From Macrostomum lignano (lineage: Eukaryota), in NCBI GenBank assembly GCA_002269645.1, contig NIVC01002507.1, positions 1-64,000 on the forward strand: a stretch of 64,000 nt of DNA. The letters run 5' to 3'. Positions within the stretch are counted from its first letter, which is position 1. Each line of letters begins with the position of its first letter. This document shows positions 46,770-63,997 of this stretch, in pieces. Made by a program: the position numbers and the translations under genes. The notes under the pieces are model-generated. The model ran no database searches, was not told the DNA's origin, and was given only the letters and a program-made list of their open reading frames with translations.

Positions 46770-47110
46770 GATGAGGAAGTGAAGCTGGATTTCGAGTAAT
46801 CAGACTCCATAATTATGGATAGTTTGGTCTCTTTTGCAAGCGCGGCTATTGGCTGATCAAATACGAGCTAGAGTTGACTGGCGAACCAAAATCAGACTCA
46901 TTCTTTTAGGACTGCGACTTGCTTGTTCTTAGCTCGTATTCTGCAGTTGGCTGGGCAGCCGCAAGCATCCAGCTGAGCACAGGTTGGCTCGAGTTTTCTC
47001 TCTTAATTATCATCTCTTGTTGGCTCTTATCATCAATGATAAGATTGACAGTTCTGAGTGAGTCACAGAAGACTGAGGAGTTTGTACTCAAAGCAGTATG
47101 GTTTCTATGG
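46770..47110 (-). pseudogene. Relic of receptor-like gene exon 6 (copy F), TM segment deleted
   Basis: Translates as STNSSVFCDSLRTVNLIIDD..SSQPVLSWMLAAAQPTAE, homologous to E6 with internal deletions. Upstream exons are absent. Confidence 0.75.
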
Positions 47111-47126
47111 TACGTTTGGTACTTTT

Positions 47127-47778
47127 GGCAGTCAAATTGTGGCAGTCAAATTGTGGCAGTCAAATTGTGGCAGTCAAATTGTGGCAGTCAAATTGTGGCA
47201 GTCAAATTGTGGCAGTCAAATTGTGGCAGTCAAATTGTGGCAGTCAAATTGTGGCAGTCAAATTGTGGCAGTCAAATTGTGGCAGTCAAATTGTGGCAGT
47301 CAAATTGTGGCAGTCAAATTGTGGCAGTCAAATTGTGGCAGTCAAATTGTGGCAGTCAAATTGTGGCAGTCAAATTGTGGCAGTCAAATTGTGGCAGTCA
47401 AATTGTGGCAGTCAAATTGTGGCAGTCAAATTGTGGCAGTCAAATTGTGGCAGTCAAATTGTGGCAGTCAAATTGTGGCAGTCAAATTGTGGCAGTCAAA
47501 TTGTGGCAGTCAAATTGTGGCAGTCAAATTGTGGCAGTCAAATTGTGGCAGTCAAATTGTGGCAGTCAAATTGTGGCAGTCAAATTGTGGCAGTCAAATT
47601 GTGGCAGTCAAATTGTGGCAGTCAAATTGTGGCAGTCAAATTGTGGCAGTCAAATTGTGGCAGTCAAATTGTGGCAGTCAAATTGTGGCAGTCAAATTGT
47701 GGCAGTCAAATTGTGGCAGTCAAATTGTGGCAGTCAAATTGTGGCAGTCAAATTGTGGCAGTCAAATTGTGGCAGTCA
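47127..47778 (+). repeat. 14-bp satellite (GGCAGTCAAATTGT)~46
   Basis: Perfect tandem 14-mer; accounts for the 14-aa periodic ORFs in all three plus frames. Confidence 0.98.
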
Positions 47779-50700
47779 ACTGCCACAGACTCAACTAAAT
47801 GTGCACGAAACTTAACTCATTGTCTCTGTGTACTAACCAAGAGAAGTTTCTCTGCTTCTTGCAATATTTGCAAATTTTGATGGGGGGTAGCAACCGTGGC
47901 AAACGCATGATTTTATTTACAGGTGAAGCTGCGGTAACTCTGTGGCAAGTCCAAGTGAAACCCACGGCTTTTCCGCGGATTTTTCTTCTGTGAATAAGTC
48001 TCCAAGTACTTTTAAAAGGTCATTCCATGGCTTTTCCATGGAAATTTAGCCGATACAATACAGGAATGCGGATCTATGCCGCCGAGTACTATGCGAGGAA
48101 AGAGAAGCAGAAGGACGCACGCTTCTTGTACCAAAGCAGTTTCCAAAGCAGCATGTACTGTTCGCTGTACGCCTCCCCCCCCCCAAAGTCAAGTGCTGTA
48201 CAAAAAAGGAACTTCAGTTTTGTTCCAAGTTACTTTAGATTTTTTTGTTGTTATTTTGAAAGGTTGCGAAATAAATGAATACGCAATATATGGTACAGTT
48301 CCCACAAAAAGTTCGTAGTTAATAGACTCATCTCACGGCTCAAAGCACTCAACTGCAAGGAATAAGATTATAAGCATGTGAAATTACGTCTGAGTCCGGC
48401 GGATGTCCCTCTCGTCTAAACTAAGGGATTAAAAGTTTATTTTTGTAATCTTTCTTTTAGTTTAGTTTCACAACTGCGAGCTCAAGGTACTGTACGTGTG
48501 GTGCACAAACAGCATTAATTTCGCTGCTCTCATTTTGTACCTTAGGCGGACATCTTAAGCTAGAATTTTCGGGCACTGGGTATGTTTCAAATTACCCCAT
48601 ATTTCATATTTTCCAGATTTCACATCCCTGAATTTTACATTTCTTACATTTTACATTCCCCAAATATTACGTTCCCAAATTCTACATTTCTTTGATTTCC
48701 CTGGCTTCGTAAAGAAGCATCAATAAGATTACGCTGTCAGATTACTTAGACGGCAGCGGCACAGGGCGCGCCTCTGGACCAGGTCGTGAAGGAATGTCAC
48801 GTCGCCGACCGAATCCGGTACATTGGCGTCAGCCAGCAGGCTGCAAACAAGGCGCGAAGCCATGATACGCGGCCTGCCTGCTTGTGCCAGCTGGACGCCG
48901 CCCTCACCCCATGTACGCAGGGGCGAACCCCAGAGCTATTTTTAGCAACACATCTGTAGAGTACAACTTGGGGATTCTCTGGTCTTTTCTGAACGCTCCT
49001 TGATTTTTAAAACGTTATTAACAAATTTTTTTCCTGTTATCTTATTATTGCATCGCTGAAGGACTTTCAAACACACTGGCCTCCAAAAGCCCTATTATGA
49101 GCGCGAGGCTCACAGCTCAGAATTCGCAGTACCGAATATTATTCAAAGCAGTGTATCTTATAGTCAACAAGAACGCATAGGCACAATGCAGAAAATGAAT
49201 ATTTTGAGTTGGATAGAGTTAGCGCTCCTGCAGTTTCTCTCTGTGCTGTTGTTAAGGCAACCATCAACCCCTGCATTTTGCTGGGAGTCTGTGTCACGCG
49301 TTCGTAGGCTGCTAGCTTGGCCCTCAAATCTCAGCTTCGTTATTGTCCTTTGGGAATTGAGGTCGGCTTTCTTAAGCTGGTCTGTTTGGATAGCTTCATG
49401 GTCAAGACGAGTAGAGGTCGTTGTTTTTCCACTTCGATGCAAGCTCTTCTCACCACCAAGCTCTTTTTCGGTGCTTACAGCTATTAAAAGAATAAAAGAA
49501 ACTGCAGATGACAAAATAAACATATTTTGTAACTTATATACTAATTTTAATTATCTTACCTTCTATTTTCCTTCTATCTAATTTCTTTCCACTTTCTTAT
49601 CAATCTCTTCTTTGATTAAAAAAGATCAGAAGCGTGGCCAGGGAAGGGCCCTCCAAAAAGGCTGGCAAAACTAAAGCCCCTTGGTGCTAAAGCCCCTTGG
49701 TGCTAAAGCCCCTTGGTGCTAAAGCCCCTTGGTGCTAAAGCCCCTTGGTGCTAAAGCCCCTTGGTGCTAAAGCCCCTTGGTGCTAAAGCCCCTTGGTGCT
49801 AAAGCCCCTTGGTGCTAAAGCCCCTTGGTGCTAAAGCCCCTTGGTGCTAAAGCCCCTTGGTCCTGGCGCCTCTCATTGCAGTCGTCCCTGAAAGGCACAG
49901 CCCCAATAAAAACCCTAGCTGAAAACCCTGATACGATAAACTCCAAACCAGGTCCGGGAATTTTAGAACTTGACGATAAAACATTTCCGTCGAATTCTGA
50001 CTCCCACCCACTGGGTAGAGATGCAGCTTCAAGACACTTTGTACAAAGAAATGAAGCCCGAACACTAACTACATCTAGATTTAATACTCTGTTGTCTAAA
50101 GAATAAAAAAGGTTAAATTCGATTCATTCTAATAATCCCGTACAGAAATCCGACACACGTGACGCCGCAGGTAAACGCAGGTACTTTTACAATACAGGGA
50201 CGTTCAGCCAACGTCGTTATTCGTCGGTGCAATGCGCCCATTTGTCGGATTCTATGGGCACTCGGTTATGATCTTTTCATAATGAAATGCATTCAATACA
50301 TTCAATTATTCTTCCCTGTTATTCTACTTACCTTTATTCTTATTCAACTCAGGGATGACTTACAGGCAGTTTTTCGATGCCTACTCATCAAGAATATTCT
50401 TGAAAGCAGCTCTCTGACTACCGTAATCACCGATAATTGAGATATTAGATTGCACAATTCTTGAATTACTGCGTTTCTGCTGGATTGTTCAAATGACAGG
50501 TAAATCAGTTTTTTATTATACGCTCGTAAATTCACACTAATTCAGGTACACTTGCATTAAAATCATAAATTTTGCAAAATGTTAAGTATACAACTGCTAC
50601 GAGTAGATTAGTGCGAAACACTCAGTCTCAATGCACTCGTTTATCAGCCACTATTTAATTAACTCAGCTAAAATGCATTCTAAACAGTCTACCATCATTT

Positions 50701-57918: not shown

Positions 57919-58886
57919 GAGTCAGCTATACTATTTATGCAAAGGCGTCAAGTTTGATTTCATAATCCCTACTACTCGTATTATCAACTCTCTTTTCGTT
58001 TGCGACCAGACAGCTAAAATTGATGCTCAAAGGGTCTGCTGCCTTCTTTAACAATTAACATTATTTCACAGCTTATAGAAGATTCTCTAACTGTGCTCAA
58101 AGTTTTGCTTACAGTCCGAAGCCTTCGAGTGCAGTTTGTATTGCATCGGTTGTTGCTGTACAGCTGAAAATACAGATCTTTTCCACCTCCGCTTGCTTAG
58201 GTGAGCCTCCATGTCAAAGCCAGTCAGAACCACAACGGCATTGTCAAGATGGTCAGTCAGAATCTTCCATTTGCAGTTGAGCCCTTCCTCAGGCACAGGC
58301 TCTCCGTAAGTTTTAGGAATGATTCGATCTTCAATGAACTCGAGTTTTAGGCTGAGCTGGAACTCATTGGTGTTGCCACGCGGATAGCAGTACTGGTTGC
58401 CTGCCAGAGCTCTGAAGAAGAATGGGCGGGACAGTAGATTTATTGAAAATGGACAGTTAAAAGTTACTGGCCTACTTAATATTTGGTCTCCTAAACGTTT
58501 TTTCTAAGCTATTTTTGGCATAATGTGTTGTTGATTATGCGATTAATTGGCTTTTCGGTCGGTACTTCAGGTATTTCTTGCATATAGACCTGTTAAGTAA
58601 TATTTTTTATATTTTAATAATATATGGAATGTATTATTATCATTAGCTATGCTCTATACGCATGAACGTGTAGAAATGCCATCGATTTTGGGGGCACCAT
58701 TCTAGCCGAACTCAATACGATAAAATGGGTGAGTATCTACTTACTGTCCTACTGATAGTAAAAAAGACAAGAAAATTTCGTGTAAAGAACAAGTGCTTTT
58801 TAACCAGCTACAGTACTATGATATAATGTAATTGTCTTTAGTACAATAATGTACGTTGACAGTGCCAGACTCACAAGGACAGGCCC

Positions 58887-59462
58887 CATATTCGAAATCC
58901 ATCAGTAAAATCTACTCCCTTATTCGAAATCCATCAGTAAAAGCTACTCCCATATTCGAAATCCATCAGTAAAATCTACTCCCATATCCGAAATCCATCA
59001 GTAAAAGCTACTCCCATATTCGAAATCCATCAGTAAAAGCTACTCCCATATTCGAAATCCATCAGTAAAAGCTACTCCCTTATTTGAAATCCATCAGTAA
59101 AAGCTACTCCCATATCCGAAATCCATCAGTAAAATCTACTCCCTTATTCGAAATCCATCAGTAAAAGCTACTCCCATATTCGAAATCCATCAGTAAAAGC
59201 TACTCCCATATTCGAAATCCATCAGTAAAAGCTACTCCCATATTCGAAATCCATCAGTAAAAGCTACTCCCATATTCGAAATCCATCAGTAAAATCTACT
59301 CCCTTATTCGAAATCCATCAGTAAAATCTACTCCCATATTCGAAATCCATCAGTAAAAGCTACTCCCATATTCGAAATCCATCAGTAAAATCTACTCCCT
59401 TATTCGAAATCCATCAGTAAAAGCTACTCCCATATTCGAAATCCATCAGTAAAAGCTACTCC
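58887..59462 (+). repeat. 32-bp tandem array (CCATATTCGAAATCCATCAGTAAAAGCTACTC)~18
   Basis: Direct repeats with no unique spacers; abuts the AGTAGT terminus-like sequence. Confidence 0.97.
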
Positions 59463-59562
59463 AGTAGTAGTATGTTATAAGGGGCTGCGCCACACTTAAT
59501 TGCTCGGGCGCATTGCGCGCCAGCTCGCTGGATGACTCAGCCCCTTATAACATACTACTACT
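59463..59562. mobile_element. Maverick/Polinton-type terminus in a 25-bp perfect inverted repeat
   Basis: AGTAGTAGTATGTTATAAGGGGCTG ... CAGCCCCTTATAACATACTACTACT. (AGT)n ends are characteristic of Polintons. A degenerate second copy of the loop plus right arm lies at ~60402-60479. Confidence 0.7.
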
Positions 59563-59977
59563 ACCAGGAGGTCATGGATTCAAGTGGGGGTGTGATAAAT
59601 ATAAAAATACATATATCTGTGACTGAGGGTGTTGAGGGTGAGGGCATGTGGGGGCATTGGCCTGTGGTATATTTCACAGAACACAGAATTTCCGGAATTT
59701 TTATACTTTTAAAAAGGGGGGGTGCCCTCGCCCTCATGCCCTCACTCATTTTGAAAATCACTAAAAACAGGTGAAAAATGACTAAAAACAGGTGAAAATG
59801 GTCTGAAAACAGCGATTTTTTGTGATTTTCTAATTTTTTTAAAAAGTGCAATTTTCACGATTCCAGCTCTAAAACCATGAGAAAAGTTGGATCCTCGGGT
59901 CAATTTAATGCAATTTCAGGTATATACAATATGAAAGTGTCATCCAATTCAACGATAGTAAATTATATATATATAAA

Positions 59978-60109
59978 ATGGCCTTCAGTAAACCAATATT
60001 TCTAGGAAATGCTTTAGATATTCAGTCAGCTATAACAAAACTGCCACTTGTCAACTCTGCAACAATGAAAAGCAGCACTCAACATTTCTATTGGCTTGCT
60101 GAAACATGA
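59978..60109 (+). pseudogene. Truncated paralog of the PLA2-integrase N-terminal leader
   Basis: MAFSKPIFLGNALDIQSAITKLP matches MAFNKPLFLGSALDIQSAMTKLP at 61372, including the upstream TATAAAATG; homology ends at ~60047. Confidence 0.8.
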
Positions 60110-61371
60110 ATAAATTCTGATGCAGATTTTGCACAATAGAATTACTTCTGAATTGCAAAATAAAATTCTCCTTCACCCTGTGGGACTGAATGTATTCGAA
60201 TTGTAGACAGCATTGTTATCACGATGACTAAGAATCATGGCTTCTTCCATATCTTCATCACCTCTGTCTTCTATTCTCTCTGACTCACTCAAAAACCCTC
60301 CAGCATCATGCAAAGAATTAAAGGTTTAGATTAGCTGCGAACAGCCATTCATCAACTCCCCTCCAAGCTGCTACAGCATGCATTTGCAACCCACTTCAAT
60401 GCCACACTTATTGCTCGGGCGCATTGCGCGCCAGCTCGCTGCCGCTGGATGACTCAGCCCCGTATAACACACTGCTACTCACTCACTCTAGAGAGAAAAA
60501 ATCTGTCACTGCCACAGGGCAGTGGCAAGGCAGTGGCAGGGCAGTGGCAGGGCAGTGGCAGGGCAGTGGCAACCAATTAGCGGCTGGCATAAGACATTTT
60601 AGACAGCATTTAAGGGCATACCCAAAATAAAGTATCCGCAACAAGTGTCCTCTGCTTAAATTATCAGTTTTCATTCCGAACGAACAGAATGCCCGGAAAT
60701 CCAACTAGGCGTGCTAGAATACTTGTGAACACACAAGAGAGAAACAATTTGAGAGGTTTGATTCACACACAATACCCCAATACTAGCTTCGTCACGTCTA
60801 CAAATGAGAATCAATTCCTTGAGCATTATCGCGTATACTTCGACAAAATTGAGAACGACATTGCGATGCTTAGGCTAGTTAAAAAACCATTGCGAAGGAT
60901 CGTTCTATCTTAGAAAATCAACGCCAACTAGAAATCGAGCGCTCGCTAGATGTAGACGTTCCAGAGGCACCTCCGACATACGAGGATGCTCAACAACAAG
61001 CTGCTCAAAACCAAGCTGCTCAAGACCAAGCTGCTCAAGACCAAGCTGCTCAAAACCAAGCTGCTCAAGACCAAGCTGCTCAAGACCAAGACATGAGTGA
61101 CTAAGGACTATCACTGTGACTGTGACTAAGGAGGACTGTAAGGACTGTGACTAAGGATTGTCATTGTGACTGTGACTAAGGATTGTTATGCATCGTCTTA
61201 TAAGTTTCTTTTAAAATATACCAAGATCTTTTATCAGCCATCTGTTTTGTGTAACATGTCGCTTTGGATTATTGTCTCGACTTGTCTTAAAATTCAGTCT
61301 ATTAAGTACTCAATGGAATGTATACAAACACTTTACAAGTAAAAATAAAGAAATAAAAAAATCTCTATAAA

Positions 61372-61503
61372 ATGGCCTTCAATAAACCACTATTTCTTGG
61401 TTCTGCATTAGACATTCAGTCAGCTATGACAAAACTGCCACCCATCTTCTCTACTGGAAAATATCCTGGAGAATTTCATATTCCAGGGTATTCTTTTGCA
61501 GGT
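61372..61503 (+). CDS. Exon 1 of Maverick PLA2-integrase fusion (44 codons)
   Basis: MAFNKPLFLGSALDIQSAMTKLPPIFSTGKYPGEFHIPGYSFAG, the N-terminal half of a parvovirus-type PLA2 Ca2+ loop. It joins in frame to CCC GGT (PG) at 62395. Confidence 0.9.
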
Positions 61504-62394
61504 TACCTTGTGGCCTGAGTGAGGAAAGTCAATGTCCTTGCTAGTCATCGAGCAGAGCTCGCGTCCCTTCAGGGCGATCGATAAGCACTTGTTAAATTTT
61601 TTAAAGTAAAAATGGAGCAAAAAATTCGAGAAATTCTCTTGAAACCAATTGACGACAAGGTGGGGTATGACCAAATTCTTTGCGATTTATTTCAAGAAGA
61701 GCTAATAATTTCACACAAGATTAAAGTTATTCAAATGAGACTAGGTAGACTATATGAAGTTTTAGCAGAAAAATATTTTGGATTCGAAAAGGTAAAAAAG
61801 ATTGACCTGGTTCACGTTGAGCGAAAGATTGCATTAGAGCTTAAATCTTCTGATAACACAGACAATTCCTCAAGTCGTGAAAGTAACTATCGGAAACTAT
61901 TAGACTATAAAAAGTCTAATCCCACCTACCAGTTGTTTTATGTATGCATCAATAAAACTGCAAACGAACCTAAGAATATTTTACTAGACAATGGAATCAC
62001 CCTTAAAACAGGAGAATTTGCATTGAAATTTCTTTATCGGGATAAATACACAAACATTATAACCAAGGTTAAACAAGTGCTTAGTGAATGGCGACACCTT
62101 CAAATTGCGGGAACTCCTTCAATAGCCTCAAGTACCACTTCAGCTGAGAAATCTTCTGAAGGAACACAGGTAATTCCTGTTCCCAACGGTAACAAGCTTG
62201 AGGACATGGTGGAAATCCGCAGCCAAGCTCCTAAGTCCGATCTTTGATCGAGTACCTATGGTACGTCCATTAAAGTTGACAAGGATATGGAGAAGGTTCA
62301 GAGACTTTATGGAGGTGGGGCTGAAGGATCTGGTCAATCCTGATGATGCCTTAAGATAAAGTCCAGCCTCTTTCGAAAGACTGAGGATCAACTG
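61504..62394 (+). ncRNA. Group I self-splicing intron, subgroup IC1-like (891 nt)
   Basis: The 5' exon ends in U and the intron ends in G. P AAATTGCGGGAA 62102-62113; Q AATCCGCAGC 62214-62223; R GTTCAGAGACTTTATG 62296-62311; S AAGATAAAGTC 62353-62363. P1 CAGGU/GCCUG (61499-61503/61513-61517) with U.G at the splice site; P3 CACCTTC/GGAGGTG; P7 with bulged A62302. Confidence 0.93.
61612..62247 (+). CDS. Intron-encoded PD-(D/E)XK restriction-endonuclease-like protein (candidate homing endonuclease), 211 aa
   Basis: Motifs MRLGRLYEVL ... KIDL ... IALELKSSDNTDNSSS fit the E..D..(E)xK catalytic pattern. The ORF starts in a peripheral intron loop and reads into the ribozyme core. Family assignment is from recalled motifs only. 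Confidence 0.7.
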   Translation: MEQKIREILLKPIDDKVGYDQILCDLFQEELIISHKIKVIQMRLGRLYEVLAEKYFGFEKVKKIDLVHVERKIALELKSSDNTDNSSSRESNYRKLLDYKKSNPTYQLFYVCINKTANEPKNILLDNGITLKTGEFALKFLYRDKYTNIITKVKQVLSEWRHLQIAGTPSIASSTTSAEKSSEGTQVIPVPNGNKLEDMVEIRSQAPKSDL

Positions 62395-63621
62395 CCCGGT
62401 ACAAATTTAGACAAGAGACTCAATCCAATTACAGACCGGCCTCGGTATGACAGTCTACCAATTAACCCAATCGATTGGACTGCTTACTATCATGACAAAA
62501 ACTATAGAGATGCTGAAAACACTTCTTCAAATCCAGAGGAAGCTCTAGCAAAGAAGCATATAGCTGATGAAAAAATGATAGCTGATTTAGATGCTATTCC
62601 AACCAGTGACTTGTCTGTGAAAGAGAGACTCATTCGAAATCTAGTAAAGCGTATTATCAAGGCTAAAGTTCGGTTTGGATTAGGCATTCATACTCACAAC
62701 CCCAACAATTGTATAGACTGTCTAACAATTTATGGTAAGGGTCTTAGCTATGAAGATGCAGTAAAATTGCATAAAGAATATCGAAAGCCAAGAGTATTTA
62801 GAAAAATGATTCACTATGCAAAAGACACAATTTGGCATGCAGATATCATTATCCTACCGCCCGAAAGAGGTTACAAATATGCTCTAACTATCATAGATGG
62901 TTTTACACGTTACGCCTGGGCAGTTCCTTTGAAAACAAAGACGGGAGCGGAAGTTGCAGAAGCTTTCCAAAAAGTATTTAAGGAATCAGGAAGACGATCA
63001 GAGAGACTTTGTGTAGATGAAGGCAAGGAGTTTTATAATCAGCATATGTACAAGCTATACTCGTTTTCAAAAGACAACATTAGAAAGAAGGATGAAAGGG
63101 GTGAATATATAAACAAGATGTTTTCAATTTATGGCGAGTCCAAGAATGCAATGATTGAGAGGTTCAATCGTACTCTCACAAATAAACTCTGGTTTGAATT
63201 TGATCTACAGGGTAATCAGAAGTGGCTCCACACATTGCCAGCTATTGTTGAAAAATACAACAACACAATCCATTCTGAGATTCTGATAACTTCTTCAGAA
63301 GCATCTAAACATCCTGAGCGAGTACCAAAGCCAACTTTCGAGTATTCAAATGAGAAACCAAACTTCAAAGTAGGTGACAAAGTTCATATCTATAGATATA
63401 AGGAGCACTTTGAAAAGGGTCGAAGAGGATATTGGAAAATTTCAGAAGTGTTTAGGATAAAGAAAATAGTTTACTCCAATCCCATAACCTACATTATTGA
63501 GGATGAGAATGGAGAAGAAATCATTGGATCATTTTACAAATCCCAGCTTCTACCAGCAAATTTTTCAACTAAAAATGAGCGCCTATCGAACAAACTGCAA
63601 ACGGGCGAAAGGTCAGATTGA
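62395..63621 (+). CDS. Exon 2 of PLA2-integrase fusion: PLA2 catalytic half plus Maverick/Polinton retroviral-like DDE integrase
   Basis: PGTNLDKRL..PINPIDWTAYYHDKNY (DxxAxxHDxxY), then WHADII / YALTIIDGFTRYAWAVPLKTKT / VDEGKEFYN / IERFNRTL / YNNTIHS / FKVGDKV / TYIIEDENGEEIIGSFY. The DDE triad appears intact. Spliced product is 452 aa. Confidence 0.93.
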   Translation, partial: PGTNLDKRLNPITDRPRYDSLPINPIDWTAYYHDKNYRDAENTSSNPEEALAKKHIADEKMIADLDAIPTSDLSVKERLIRNLVKRIIKAKVRFGLGIHTHNPNNCIDCLTIYGKGLSYEDAVKLHKEYRKPRVFRKMIHYAKDTIWHADIIILPPERGYKYALTIIDGFTRYAWAVPLKTKTGAEVAEAFQKVFKESGRRSERLCVDEGKEFYNQHMYKLYSFSKDNIRKKDERGEYINKMFSIYGESKNAMIERFNRTLTNKLWFEFDLQGNQKWLHTLPAIVEKYNNTIHSEILITSSEASKHPERVPKPTFEYSNEKPNFKVGDKVHIYRYKEHFEKGRRGYWKISEVFRIKKIVYSNPITYIIEDENGEEIIGSFYKSQLLPANFSTKNERLSNKLQTGERSD

Positions 63622-63997
63622 AACGTCTGATTCACAACTACTAGCTGATAAAGAGGGTGAAGGAATTGGTGATATGATCAGTGGTGTCACAAACTTTTTA
63701 TCAAATCATGGAAGTAAAATTGTTAGTGGAGCTGATGCAATAGGTAAAACAGCTACCACAGCGAAGAACATATTCGATGCGAAGAAATCATACAGTGACA
63801 TGTCTAAAGCAGGTGAGGAACTGGAATATATTAAAAAGAAACGTAGAGATAAAGAAGCAAAGAAAAGAATGGAAGAAGAGCAACAGATAGCTTCTCAATC
63901 AAATAAGGCTATTCAAGATATTGTTAAAAAGGCTCTAGGAACAGCAGAACAGTCTCAAGTGTCTTTGAGACAAGGCAATGGTTTGAAGAAATTCTGA
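63575..63997 (+). CDS. Small Maverick ORF, putative virion core/membrane-active protein (140 aa)
   Basis: TAAAAATG start, GEGIGD and C-terminal GNGLKKF GxG motifs, amphipathic-looking segment IGDMISGVTNFLSNHGSKIV, charged helix. Resemblance to Maverick/adintovirus core proteins is inferred. Confidence 0.55.
   Translation: MSAYRTNCKRAKGQIETSDSQLLADKEGEGIGDMISGVTNFLSNHGSKIVSGADAIGKTATTAKNIFDAKKSYSDMSKAGEELEYIKKKRRDKEAKKRMEEEQQIASQSNKAIQDIVKKALGTAEQSQVSLRQGNGLKKF

Follow-up and report, generated by a model that had tools for sequence, protein, structure and literature searches.

A nuclease-encoding group I intron in Polintons of an animal genome and the depletion of its predicted target site

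The window analyzed here, a stretch of 64,000 nt from Macrostomum lignano, contains a group I intron that interrupts the phospholipase-integrase gene of a Polinton, and we are almost certain that it represents a real, multi-copy group I intron of animal nuclear Polintons. The intron carries a gene for a nuclease of the Eco47II/EcoO109I kind, and the sequence GGNCC, the predicted target of this enzyme, is absent from a sister copy of the element that could be read end to end. The explanation that we prefer, and consider probable, is that of a mobile intron of giant-virus type whose nuclease was captured from an Eco47II-like restriction-modification system without the accompanying methylase, and which would combine homing into a short site with competition against other DNA.

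A search with the Rfam covariance models returned a single match within the 64-kb window, to the group I intron model RF00028 (62025-62385; 82.6 bits, gathering score 50, E = 1.7e-19), in agreement with the initial annotation, which had proposed such an intron here. Two intron-less genomic copies, L042 and L043, are colinear with the window on both sides of the insertion point and run continuously across it, reading Y-S-F-T-G and then P-G-T-N; these natural alleles fix the ends exactly at 61504-62394 and reproduce the restored phospholipase loop that had been predicted. The junctions also follow the group I rule as anticipated, because the last letter of the exon is a U, which pairs with a G in P1, and the last letter of the intron is a G. 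The U.G pair and the terminal G occur in the five lineages compared, the exception being one family-2 copy (L077:478-487; the families are described below) with a final A in place of the G.

Helices P3 (62095-62101/62311-62317), P4 (62106-62111/62216-62221), P5a (62126-62132/62197-62203) and P7 (62303-62307/62359-62363) were checked pair by pair, and the P4-P6 domain (62104-62298) folds by itself, with a z of -3.41 and only one of 200 shuffles equally stable. With the pairs listed for P1, this upholds the P1, P3, P4, P7 and P5abc-like elements of the initial annotation, and our reading of P2.1 (61544-48/62088-92), the A-rich bulge and P9.0 coincides with it. Across the five lineages, the invariant G264-C311 pair of the guanosine site is always present together with the P3-P7 core and the bulge, and P7 shows compensatory changes on both sides at 266-309, 267-308, 268-307 and 262-312; we take these labels to follow the Tetrahymena numbering. 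The change to GACUU/AAGUC in P7, previously singled out in this copy, is indeed present but is not peculiar to it, because it is common to family 1 (its 5' strand occurs in 20 of 20 copies examined) and to L174, an intron from a viral contig. Family 1 has one base fewer than the other lineages on each side of J4/5.

P2.1, P5abc with an A-rich bulge, a GAAA loop and an 11-nt receptor are features of IC1 introns, and all of them are present. Conversely, the P9.1/P9.2 extension, which is typical of IC1, is absent from the five lineages examined, in which the 3' splice site comes within around 8 nt of P9. The earlier assignment to IC1 therefore holds for individual features and not for the subgroup: since P9.1/P9.2 is missing, we consider the intron IC1-like in parts, and the IC1 label putative.

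TABLE 1. Features of the Polinton copy and of its intron in the window.
Feature	Positions	Strand	Evidence
Left terminal inverted repeat of the Polinton; starts with AGTAGT; its end duplicates the phospholipase gene's first ~75 nt	59463..60047	+	94% identity to both ends of the C2696 copy; host flanks of other copies differ
Second, nested left end, from a related subfamily; short ORF with a 15-nt repeat, and leader of the phospholipase gene	60399..61371	+	91% identity to L048 over 1.3 kb; repeats D2, D5, D7, D8
First exon (44 codons) of the PLA2-integrase gene; the Gly codon of the G-P-G loop is its last, with the 5' splice-site U	61372..61503	+	Open frame; colinear with intron-less L043
P1 helix (61499-61503/61513-61517) with internal guide sequence and splice-site U.G pair	61499..61517	+	Pairs listed; pairs constant while loop letters differ among copies
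Group I intron, 891 nt	61504..62394	+	RF00028, 82.6 bits; ends set by intron-less alleles
P2.1 (61544-48/62088-92) and inner 15-bp stem (61582-96/62069-83); the loop holds the nuclease domain	61544..62092	+	Inverted repeat I6; ORF-less family-2 introns have a short hairpin here
PD-(D/E)XK nuclease of the Eco47II/EcoO109I kind, 211 aa; E49, D65, E76 and K78 present	61612..62247	+	PF09553, E 3e-6 (over cut-off); pLDDT 77; EcoO109I, Z 9.7; dN/dS 0.16-0.32
Ribozyme core: P3, P4, P5abc (A-rich bulge, GAAA loop), P6 with tetraloop receptor, P7, P8, P9, terminal G	62093..62394	+	RF00028, fold and pair listing
Second exon (408 codons) of the PLA2-integrase gene, opening with the Pro codon	62395..63621	+	PF08398, E 1e-4 (slightly short of the cut-off; exon alone); PF00665, E 4e-10
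Next gene of the element	63497..63997	+	Element runs on into the capsid gene

The intron is not the bare ribozyme of the initial annotation, because 636 of its 891 nt are filled by an intact ORF for a restriction-type nuclease. This ORF occupies the loop of a 15-bp stem that prolongs P2.1, runs on into the core, and has the same start context, TAAAA-ATG, as most genes of the element. In the structure model, with a pLDDT of 77, residues 1-165 are folded, whereas residues 165-211 form a disordered tail that overlaps the ribozyme core. The Pfam Eco47II family was the sole match for 14 of 15 aligned homologs. Among 48,161 chains compared with the model, EcoO109I was the only one with a Z of at least 8 (Z 9.7, rmsd 3.9, 166 residues aligned), and Foldseek returned five matches under an E of 0.001, to the DdmD nuclease, EcoO109I and AvaII; a search by sequence of the solved structures gave no real match. 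The four catalytic residues are kept in all 10 intron-borne sequences aligned, and the stretch T-D-N-S-S-S following the catalytic lysine is identical in these 10 and in nine of nine free-standing enzymes. The low dN/dS among three copies indicates that the nuclease is under purifying selection. From 43 locus hits we obtained 22 distinct family-1 introns, with a full-length nuclease frame in 10 of them and a broken or shortened one in the other 12.

Free-standing homologs, with around 30-35% identity, were found in viral and metagenome contigs, and a C5 methylase gene adjoins them in 11 of the 12 loci examined; the annotation of these methylases gives no recognition site. Scanning of 15 ORFs from the C2696 copy of the element gave no methylase match. 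In a tree whose root was left untested, the intron-borne nucleases lie on one side of a branch with 100/98 support; one homolog outside this branch, P0033, also seems to read into an intron core. Several unnamed protein homologs end in translated P and Q elements and, therefore, also lie in such introns. The nuclease probably represents a new family of homing nucleases, taken directly from restriction enzymes.

The host gene encodes a parvovirus-type phospholipase domain fused to an rve integrase, according to Pfam. The element copy of the window is cut off by the end of the contig at 66,280, and has two nested left ends. The beginning of the PLA2 gene is part of the terminal repeat (59973-60047 and 61366-61441); the far end of the element therefore has an inverted copy of the first 25 codons of this gene. 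The terminal repeat opens with a 30-bp inverted repeat (93%) that could form a large hairpin (59463-59562), a candidate origin, and is directly abutted by a tandem array of around 18 units of 32 bp (58883-59462). The sister copy C2696 is also inside a tandem array and locus L039 lies beside repeats, so a preference of the element for satellite DNA as insertion site is possible. Read end to end in three pieces, the C2696 copy has terminal repeats of 582 nt with 98.8% identity, flanked on both sides by the 6-bp target duplication CGCAGG, and has Pfam matches to a double-jelly-roll capsid protein (PF21738), an A32 ATPase (PF04665) and a D5 primase-helicase. Additionally, it contains a polymerase-like region split over two ORFs without a PF03175 match, which we take to have B-family motifs, and a protease-like ORF of 141 aa without a Pfam match. 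The element thus combines a D5-type primase-helicase with a polymerase-like region that includes a domain resembling endonuclease VII (L073:7550-10000; L074:73-3137), and fiber-like F5/8 type C domains occur at L073:4452-5801.

Wnt genes are specific to animals, and the 86 Wnt matches in the 764-Mb assembly therefore identify the genome as that of an animal. On contig C67, 128 kb separate a family-1 intron from a Wnt exon, and contigs C952 and C506 contain family-2 introns and Wnt genes. Together with the varied flanks and the 6-bp duplication, this substantiates the claim of the initial annotation that the intron lies in a Polinton gene integrated in an animal genome. From the paired Wnt hits, the assembly seems to hold both haplotypes, and copy numbers may be approximately doubled. 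It is exceedingly improbable that the stretch is a contaminant or a chimera, derived from a free virus or a protist. In favor of such an origin, the element runs off the end of the contig and the 22 ORFs scanned in the contig include no animal-specific gene; its host DNA shows remnants of PiggyBac-like transposases (PF13843; 55889-57014, minus strand) and a cysteine-rich repeat ORF with weak matches to galaxin and STIG1 (46919-47880, plus strand). Nevertheless, family-1 hits occur on 28 contigs and family 2 adds 113 matches, the copies have distinct flanks, introns and Wnt exons share three contigs, and the stretch is present in 20 sequencing runs from eight studies with the same organism label, none of them listed as RNA.

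It is also very improbable that the intron, as a passenger, goes unspliced in the animal, with the integrated copies dead and only intron-less elements active. A contig from sequencing run X3 (a guess as to its RNA nature; depth 3.3) joins position 61503 exactly to exon 2, and this joint is missing from X1, X6 and X17. We rejected it as proof of splicing, since four intron-less places in the genome differ from it by one letter; no intron-bearing copy with the same start of exon 2 was found. The search for a spliced junction that had been proposed thus yielded one exact joint, which is accounted for by intron-less genomic alleles, and the sequencing runs contain no demonstrable splicing event. 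The shortened J4/5 and the 12 of 22 distinct family-1 introns with a defective nuclease frame also agree with a passenger. Conversely, compensatory changes preserve the core pairs, the core is 95-97% identical between subfamilies compared to 90-94% for the ORF part, and the occurrence of near-identical intron-bearing copies with an open exon 2 at many loci points to a recent spread, for which the integrase would have been needed.

Pattern searches and covariance models revealed that the intron is widespread. In family 1, 28 of 28 scored candidates from the genome, on 28 contigs, were over the RF00028 cut-off. Family 2 was traced from loose ends in the sequencing runs and amounts to 113 pattern matches in the genome; the three that were fetched are ORF-less, score 64-66 bits as group I introns and interrupt the gene at the same codon boundary. 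Among the family-2 matches listed, 27 of 100 have a nuclease match (around 60% identity) 210-330 nt upstream. Two unrelated public contigs have an intron at the same position: metagenome contig L062, with a nuclease (80.6 bits), and the IMG/VR Polinton L202, without it (52 bits). The latter was located by its integrase alone, and its intron was scored using a permissive Rfam search, because the fast filters missed it; a free-standing GIY-YIG gene lies just upstream of its intron-bearing PLA2 gene (L202:2804-3145), in a possible collaborative homing arrangement. The presence of the intron in at least two element families here, and in these two contigs, is at odds with the single entry event implied by the initial annotation. 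DNA-pattern scans of viral contigs gave no intron at the same site, although one of them gave introns in other genes; three same-site candidates were rejected as chance matches in phages, and single-protein scans of viral contigs gave no matches.

The closest relatives of the ribozyme that we found are in giant-virus-type genes, with 72-75% identity over around 150 nt of the P4-P5abc region (L123, L127 and L174). One of their host genes is that of the RNA polymerase Rpb1, according to Pfam, and by their motifs the remaining ones are presumably capsid-like and ubiquitin-like. In two of these IMG/VR loci, L123 and L174, there is an ORF at the matching place, reaching or entering the P element. 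These relationships fit an origin of the intron and its nuclease among giant viruses and their satellites. Several viral contigs (L090, L127, L130 and L155) contain clusters of group I P-element matches, as many as five in L130, and the first intron of L127 is located after the opening codons of a capsid-like gene.

Introns also appear to have been exchanged. Some family-1 and some family-2 introns, but not others, share the same insertion of around 30 nt in the P5c-P5a region of P5abc (L006 and L076/L077), which points to recombination between both families. Likewise, synonymous divergence between two subfamilies is 0.23 for the nuclease and 0.036 for the adjacent exon 2, as expected if introns swap between backgrounds; the greater divergence of the intron than of its flanks suggests an exchange between element backgrounds.

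Gly-Pro is always encoded by GGN-CCN, and EcoO109I and AvaII recognize RGGNCCY and GGWCC, respectively. In the G-P-G loop of the phospholipase, the intron separates the Gly codon from the Pro codon, splitting AGGT^CCN in five of five lineages examined. The recognition site of Eco47II is given as GGNCC (PMC12376442), and this 5-bp sequence is the specificity that we predict for the intron nuclease, although similarity of fold alone does not fix specificity. Between its terminal repeats, the C2696 copy has no GGNCC in 17,816 nt, compared to a mean of 20.2 and a minimum of 10 in 300 shuffles, and a count as low as this did not occur in any of 300 synonymous redraws (mean 6.8) or of 300 codon-order shuffles (mean 14.7). 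GGWCC and GGSCC are both absent, and GGNCC is the only one of the 256 XY-N-ZW patterns missing from this copy, the next lowest ratio being 0.66; two GGNCC counted at this locus fall outside the terminal repeat. The element of the window (59463-66280) has none either, and the host DNA of the window contains 90, with 110 expected. In the DNA homologous to the element from the 22 family-1 loci there were only three GGNCC besides the insertion sites of intron-less copies, two of them where the nuclease is truncated and the third in a copy lacking the intron. Family 2 has none over 3 x 701 nt. Likewise, L202 has none (shuffle mean 6.2, with two of 300 as low), a result that is not significant with synonymous redraws (54 of 300).

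Seventeen intron-less control loci bearing PLA2 totaled 242 GGNCC with 277 expected, and none was at zero, although controls L203-L210 are close relatives and thus not independent. Among the 61 integrase loci counted, only L202 and L220 were at zero (21 of the 82 loci, shorter than 3.5 kb and without a PLA2 or intron hit, were left uncounted). Some intron-less loci are also low (L220, 0 of 3.2 expected; L211, 3 of 11; L224, 2 of 11; L242, 1 of 6; L258, 14 of 42), and other pressures can therefore do part of the loss of GGNCC. The contigs with free-standing homologs show no common trend (L061, 36 of 130; L063, 67 of 38). L063, a 19 kb metagenome locus with adjoining genes for an Eco47II-like nuclease and a methylase, is enriched in GGNCC and has four CCNGG, with 73 expected.

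Gly-Pro was lost from four of the 24 fused PLA2-integrase relatives with a recognizable loop (P0184, P0187, P0188 and P0196); G-A-Q or G-T-G replaces G-P-G in these proteins, which in other respects closely resemble the exon that surrounds the intron of L062. An amino-acid change in the loop is a possible second way to lose the site, escaping cleavage. The depletion of Gly-Pro in integrase homologs (5 vs. 36 expected) was dropped as evidence, since other integrases showed likewise 10 vs. 39 and homologous sequences are not independent.

The survey for alleles lacking the intron, advised by the initial annotation, yielded 23 intron-less places with an intact GGNCC in a pattern search of the genome, compared to 4 for a control pattern. 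These alleles, which carry no nuclease of their own, are 98-99% identical from 10 to 300 nt downstream of the site, and 60% over the last 10 nt upstream of it, a pattern that also suggests exchange of introns. The core A-C-T-G-G-C-C-C-A is the same in 19 of the 23, indicating that they have multiplied and, therefore, that the enzyme is not inescapable. The middle position is C (GGCCC) in 21 of them; this excess could mean that the enzyme prefers GGWCC or that these alleles seldom meet it.

In the explanation we prefer, the nuclease would cut the 5-bp site GGNCC, and the element would survive its own enzyme through the loss of every GGNCC from its DNA. The last site, in the Gly-Pro loop, would be hard to lose because of the coding of this dipeptide, and would be split by the intron in the DNA and restored only in the RNA by self-splicing, allowing the integrase to be made. 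Site loss plus the intron would thus protect the element in place of a methylase. Intron-less relatives replicating in the same cell would receive a single cut, at the insertion point, with an intron-bearing copy as the repair template, resulting in homing, whereas unrelated Polintons and helper-virus or host DNA would be cut at many sites, giving the element a competitive edge. Because host DNA has a GGNCC around every 650 bp, expression of the nuclease must be restricted; it would be rare, late or outside the nucleus, probably initiated at a start signal of its own and confined to active replication. A subsequent loss of the nuclease and of the intron would correspond to the usual life cycle of introns. 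We lean toward the view that the intron behaves as a homing intron and probably also acts as a restriction system in which the intron itself is the immunity. We lean only slightly toward the fullest version of this, a new kind of restriction system in which the intron replaces the methylase, the 5-bp site is purged genome-wide and the last site hidden, the enzyme acts on rivals, helper viruses and host DNA, and the system has spread to animal chromosomes as active nuclear introns.

The purge might alternatively be due to an outside agent, a helper giant virus or a rival with an Eco47II-like system, with the intron being favored for hiding the last site and the nuclease arriving later and serving mainly for homing. 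This option, in which the intron masks the last site as it does in the preferred explanation, is unlikely in our opinion. In its favor, the nuclease adjoins a C5 methylase in viral contigs, several of which come from bins of giant viruses; the nearest relatives of the intron are in giant-virus-type genes; some relatives have lost Gly-Pro instead; and among the family-2 matches listed, 73 of 100 places have no nuclease match upstream. In particular, it is favored by the purge of L202, which has no intron nuclease, together with the low counts of some intron-less loci. However, intron-less Polintons are mostly unpurged, no helper virus has been identified for these elements, and an exceptionless 17.8 kb would better fit an enzyme that is always present than one met occasionally. 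An ordinary homing intron, with a long target around the insertion point as in I-Ssp6803I (such sites often exceed 20 bp), and with the purge as a relic or as the result of weak cutting at a core site, appears to us less likely still. All characterized homing endonucleases have long sites, which are considered their hallmark (PMC3943268), with around one site per 650 bp, a nucleus would not survive a 5-bp cutter, and the 60% identity over the 10 nt preceding the site in intron-less alleles is what escape from a longer site would produce. Against this, the model shows no additional DNA-binding domain, its sole extension being the disordered tail, which is seemingly missing in family 2; T-D-N-S-S-S is invariant between intron-borne and free-standing enzymes; and an enzyme with a long site would not hold all GGNCC at zero.

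Individual parts of this arrangement have precedents. Introns matching RF00028 also occur in protein genes of integrated Polinton-like viruses of protists, where they are described as restricted to Paulinella, Desmodesmus and Rhodomonas (PMC12220804); those are in a short gene upstream of the capsid gene and have no nuclease assigned, whereas here the host is an animal, the gene is that of the PLA2-integrase and the intron encodes a nuclease. The introns from L123, L127 and L174 resemble ours in the ribozyme, but their ORFs are not Eco47II-like. I-Ssp6803I, from a cyanobacterial intron, is likewise a PD-(D/E)XK homing endonuclease whose gene lies inside a group I intron (PMC3384342); it is a PvuII/resolvase-like tetramer with a 23-bp target, in contrast to an EcoO109I/Eco47II-like enzyme with a 5-bp site predicted from indirect evidence and an element-wide purge. 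The type II systems Eco47II, Sau96I and EcoO109I share the nuclease family and catalytic residues, and differ in having a methylase, which was not found in the element. The nuclease gp210, from a mobile intron of phage PhiPA3, damages a co-infecting virus (10.1101/2023.09.30.560319), although it acts in a bacterial phage on one specific target of a rival, and the site predicted here, for a eukaryotic element, is short and common. Group I introns of animals are reported from mitochondria of placozoans, corals and sponges, mostly as IB4 (PMC11835236), and ours is instead nuclear, multi-copy and in a viral protein gene. PLA2 genes are known from adintoviruses (PMC8502044), and the accessible text of this work and of PMC11131425 makes no mention of such introns. 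A literature search covering few subscription journals, and main texts rather than supplements, retrieved no description of a group I intron from animal nuclear DNA or from animal Polintons, nor of a site purge in Polintons. The system would be categorically new if the 5-bp specificity is confirmed.

If this explanation is true, group I introns would extend to animal nuclear DNA and to nuclear protein-coding genes, of which the accessible parts of reviews list none, and both the interconversion of restriction and homing enzymes and the need of the latter for long sites would become testable. A compact ribozyme of around 300 nt that evolved in animal cells would also be of interest for tools for RNA circularization and trans-splicing. 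Likewise, the results suggest that animal Polintons replicate as competing viruses, possibly beside giant viruses, which seem to be the source of both the intron and its nuclease.
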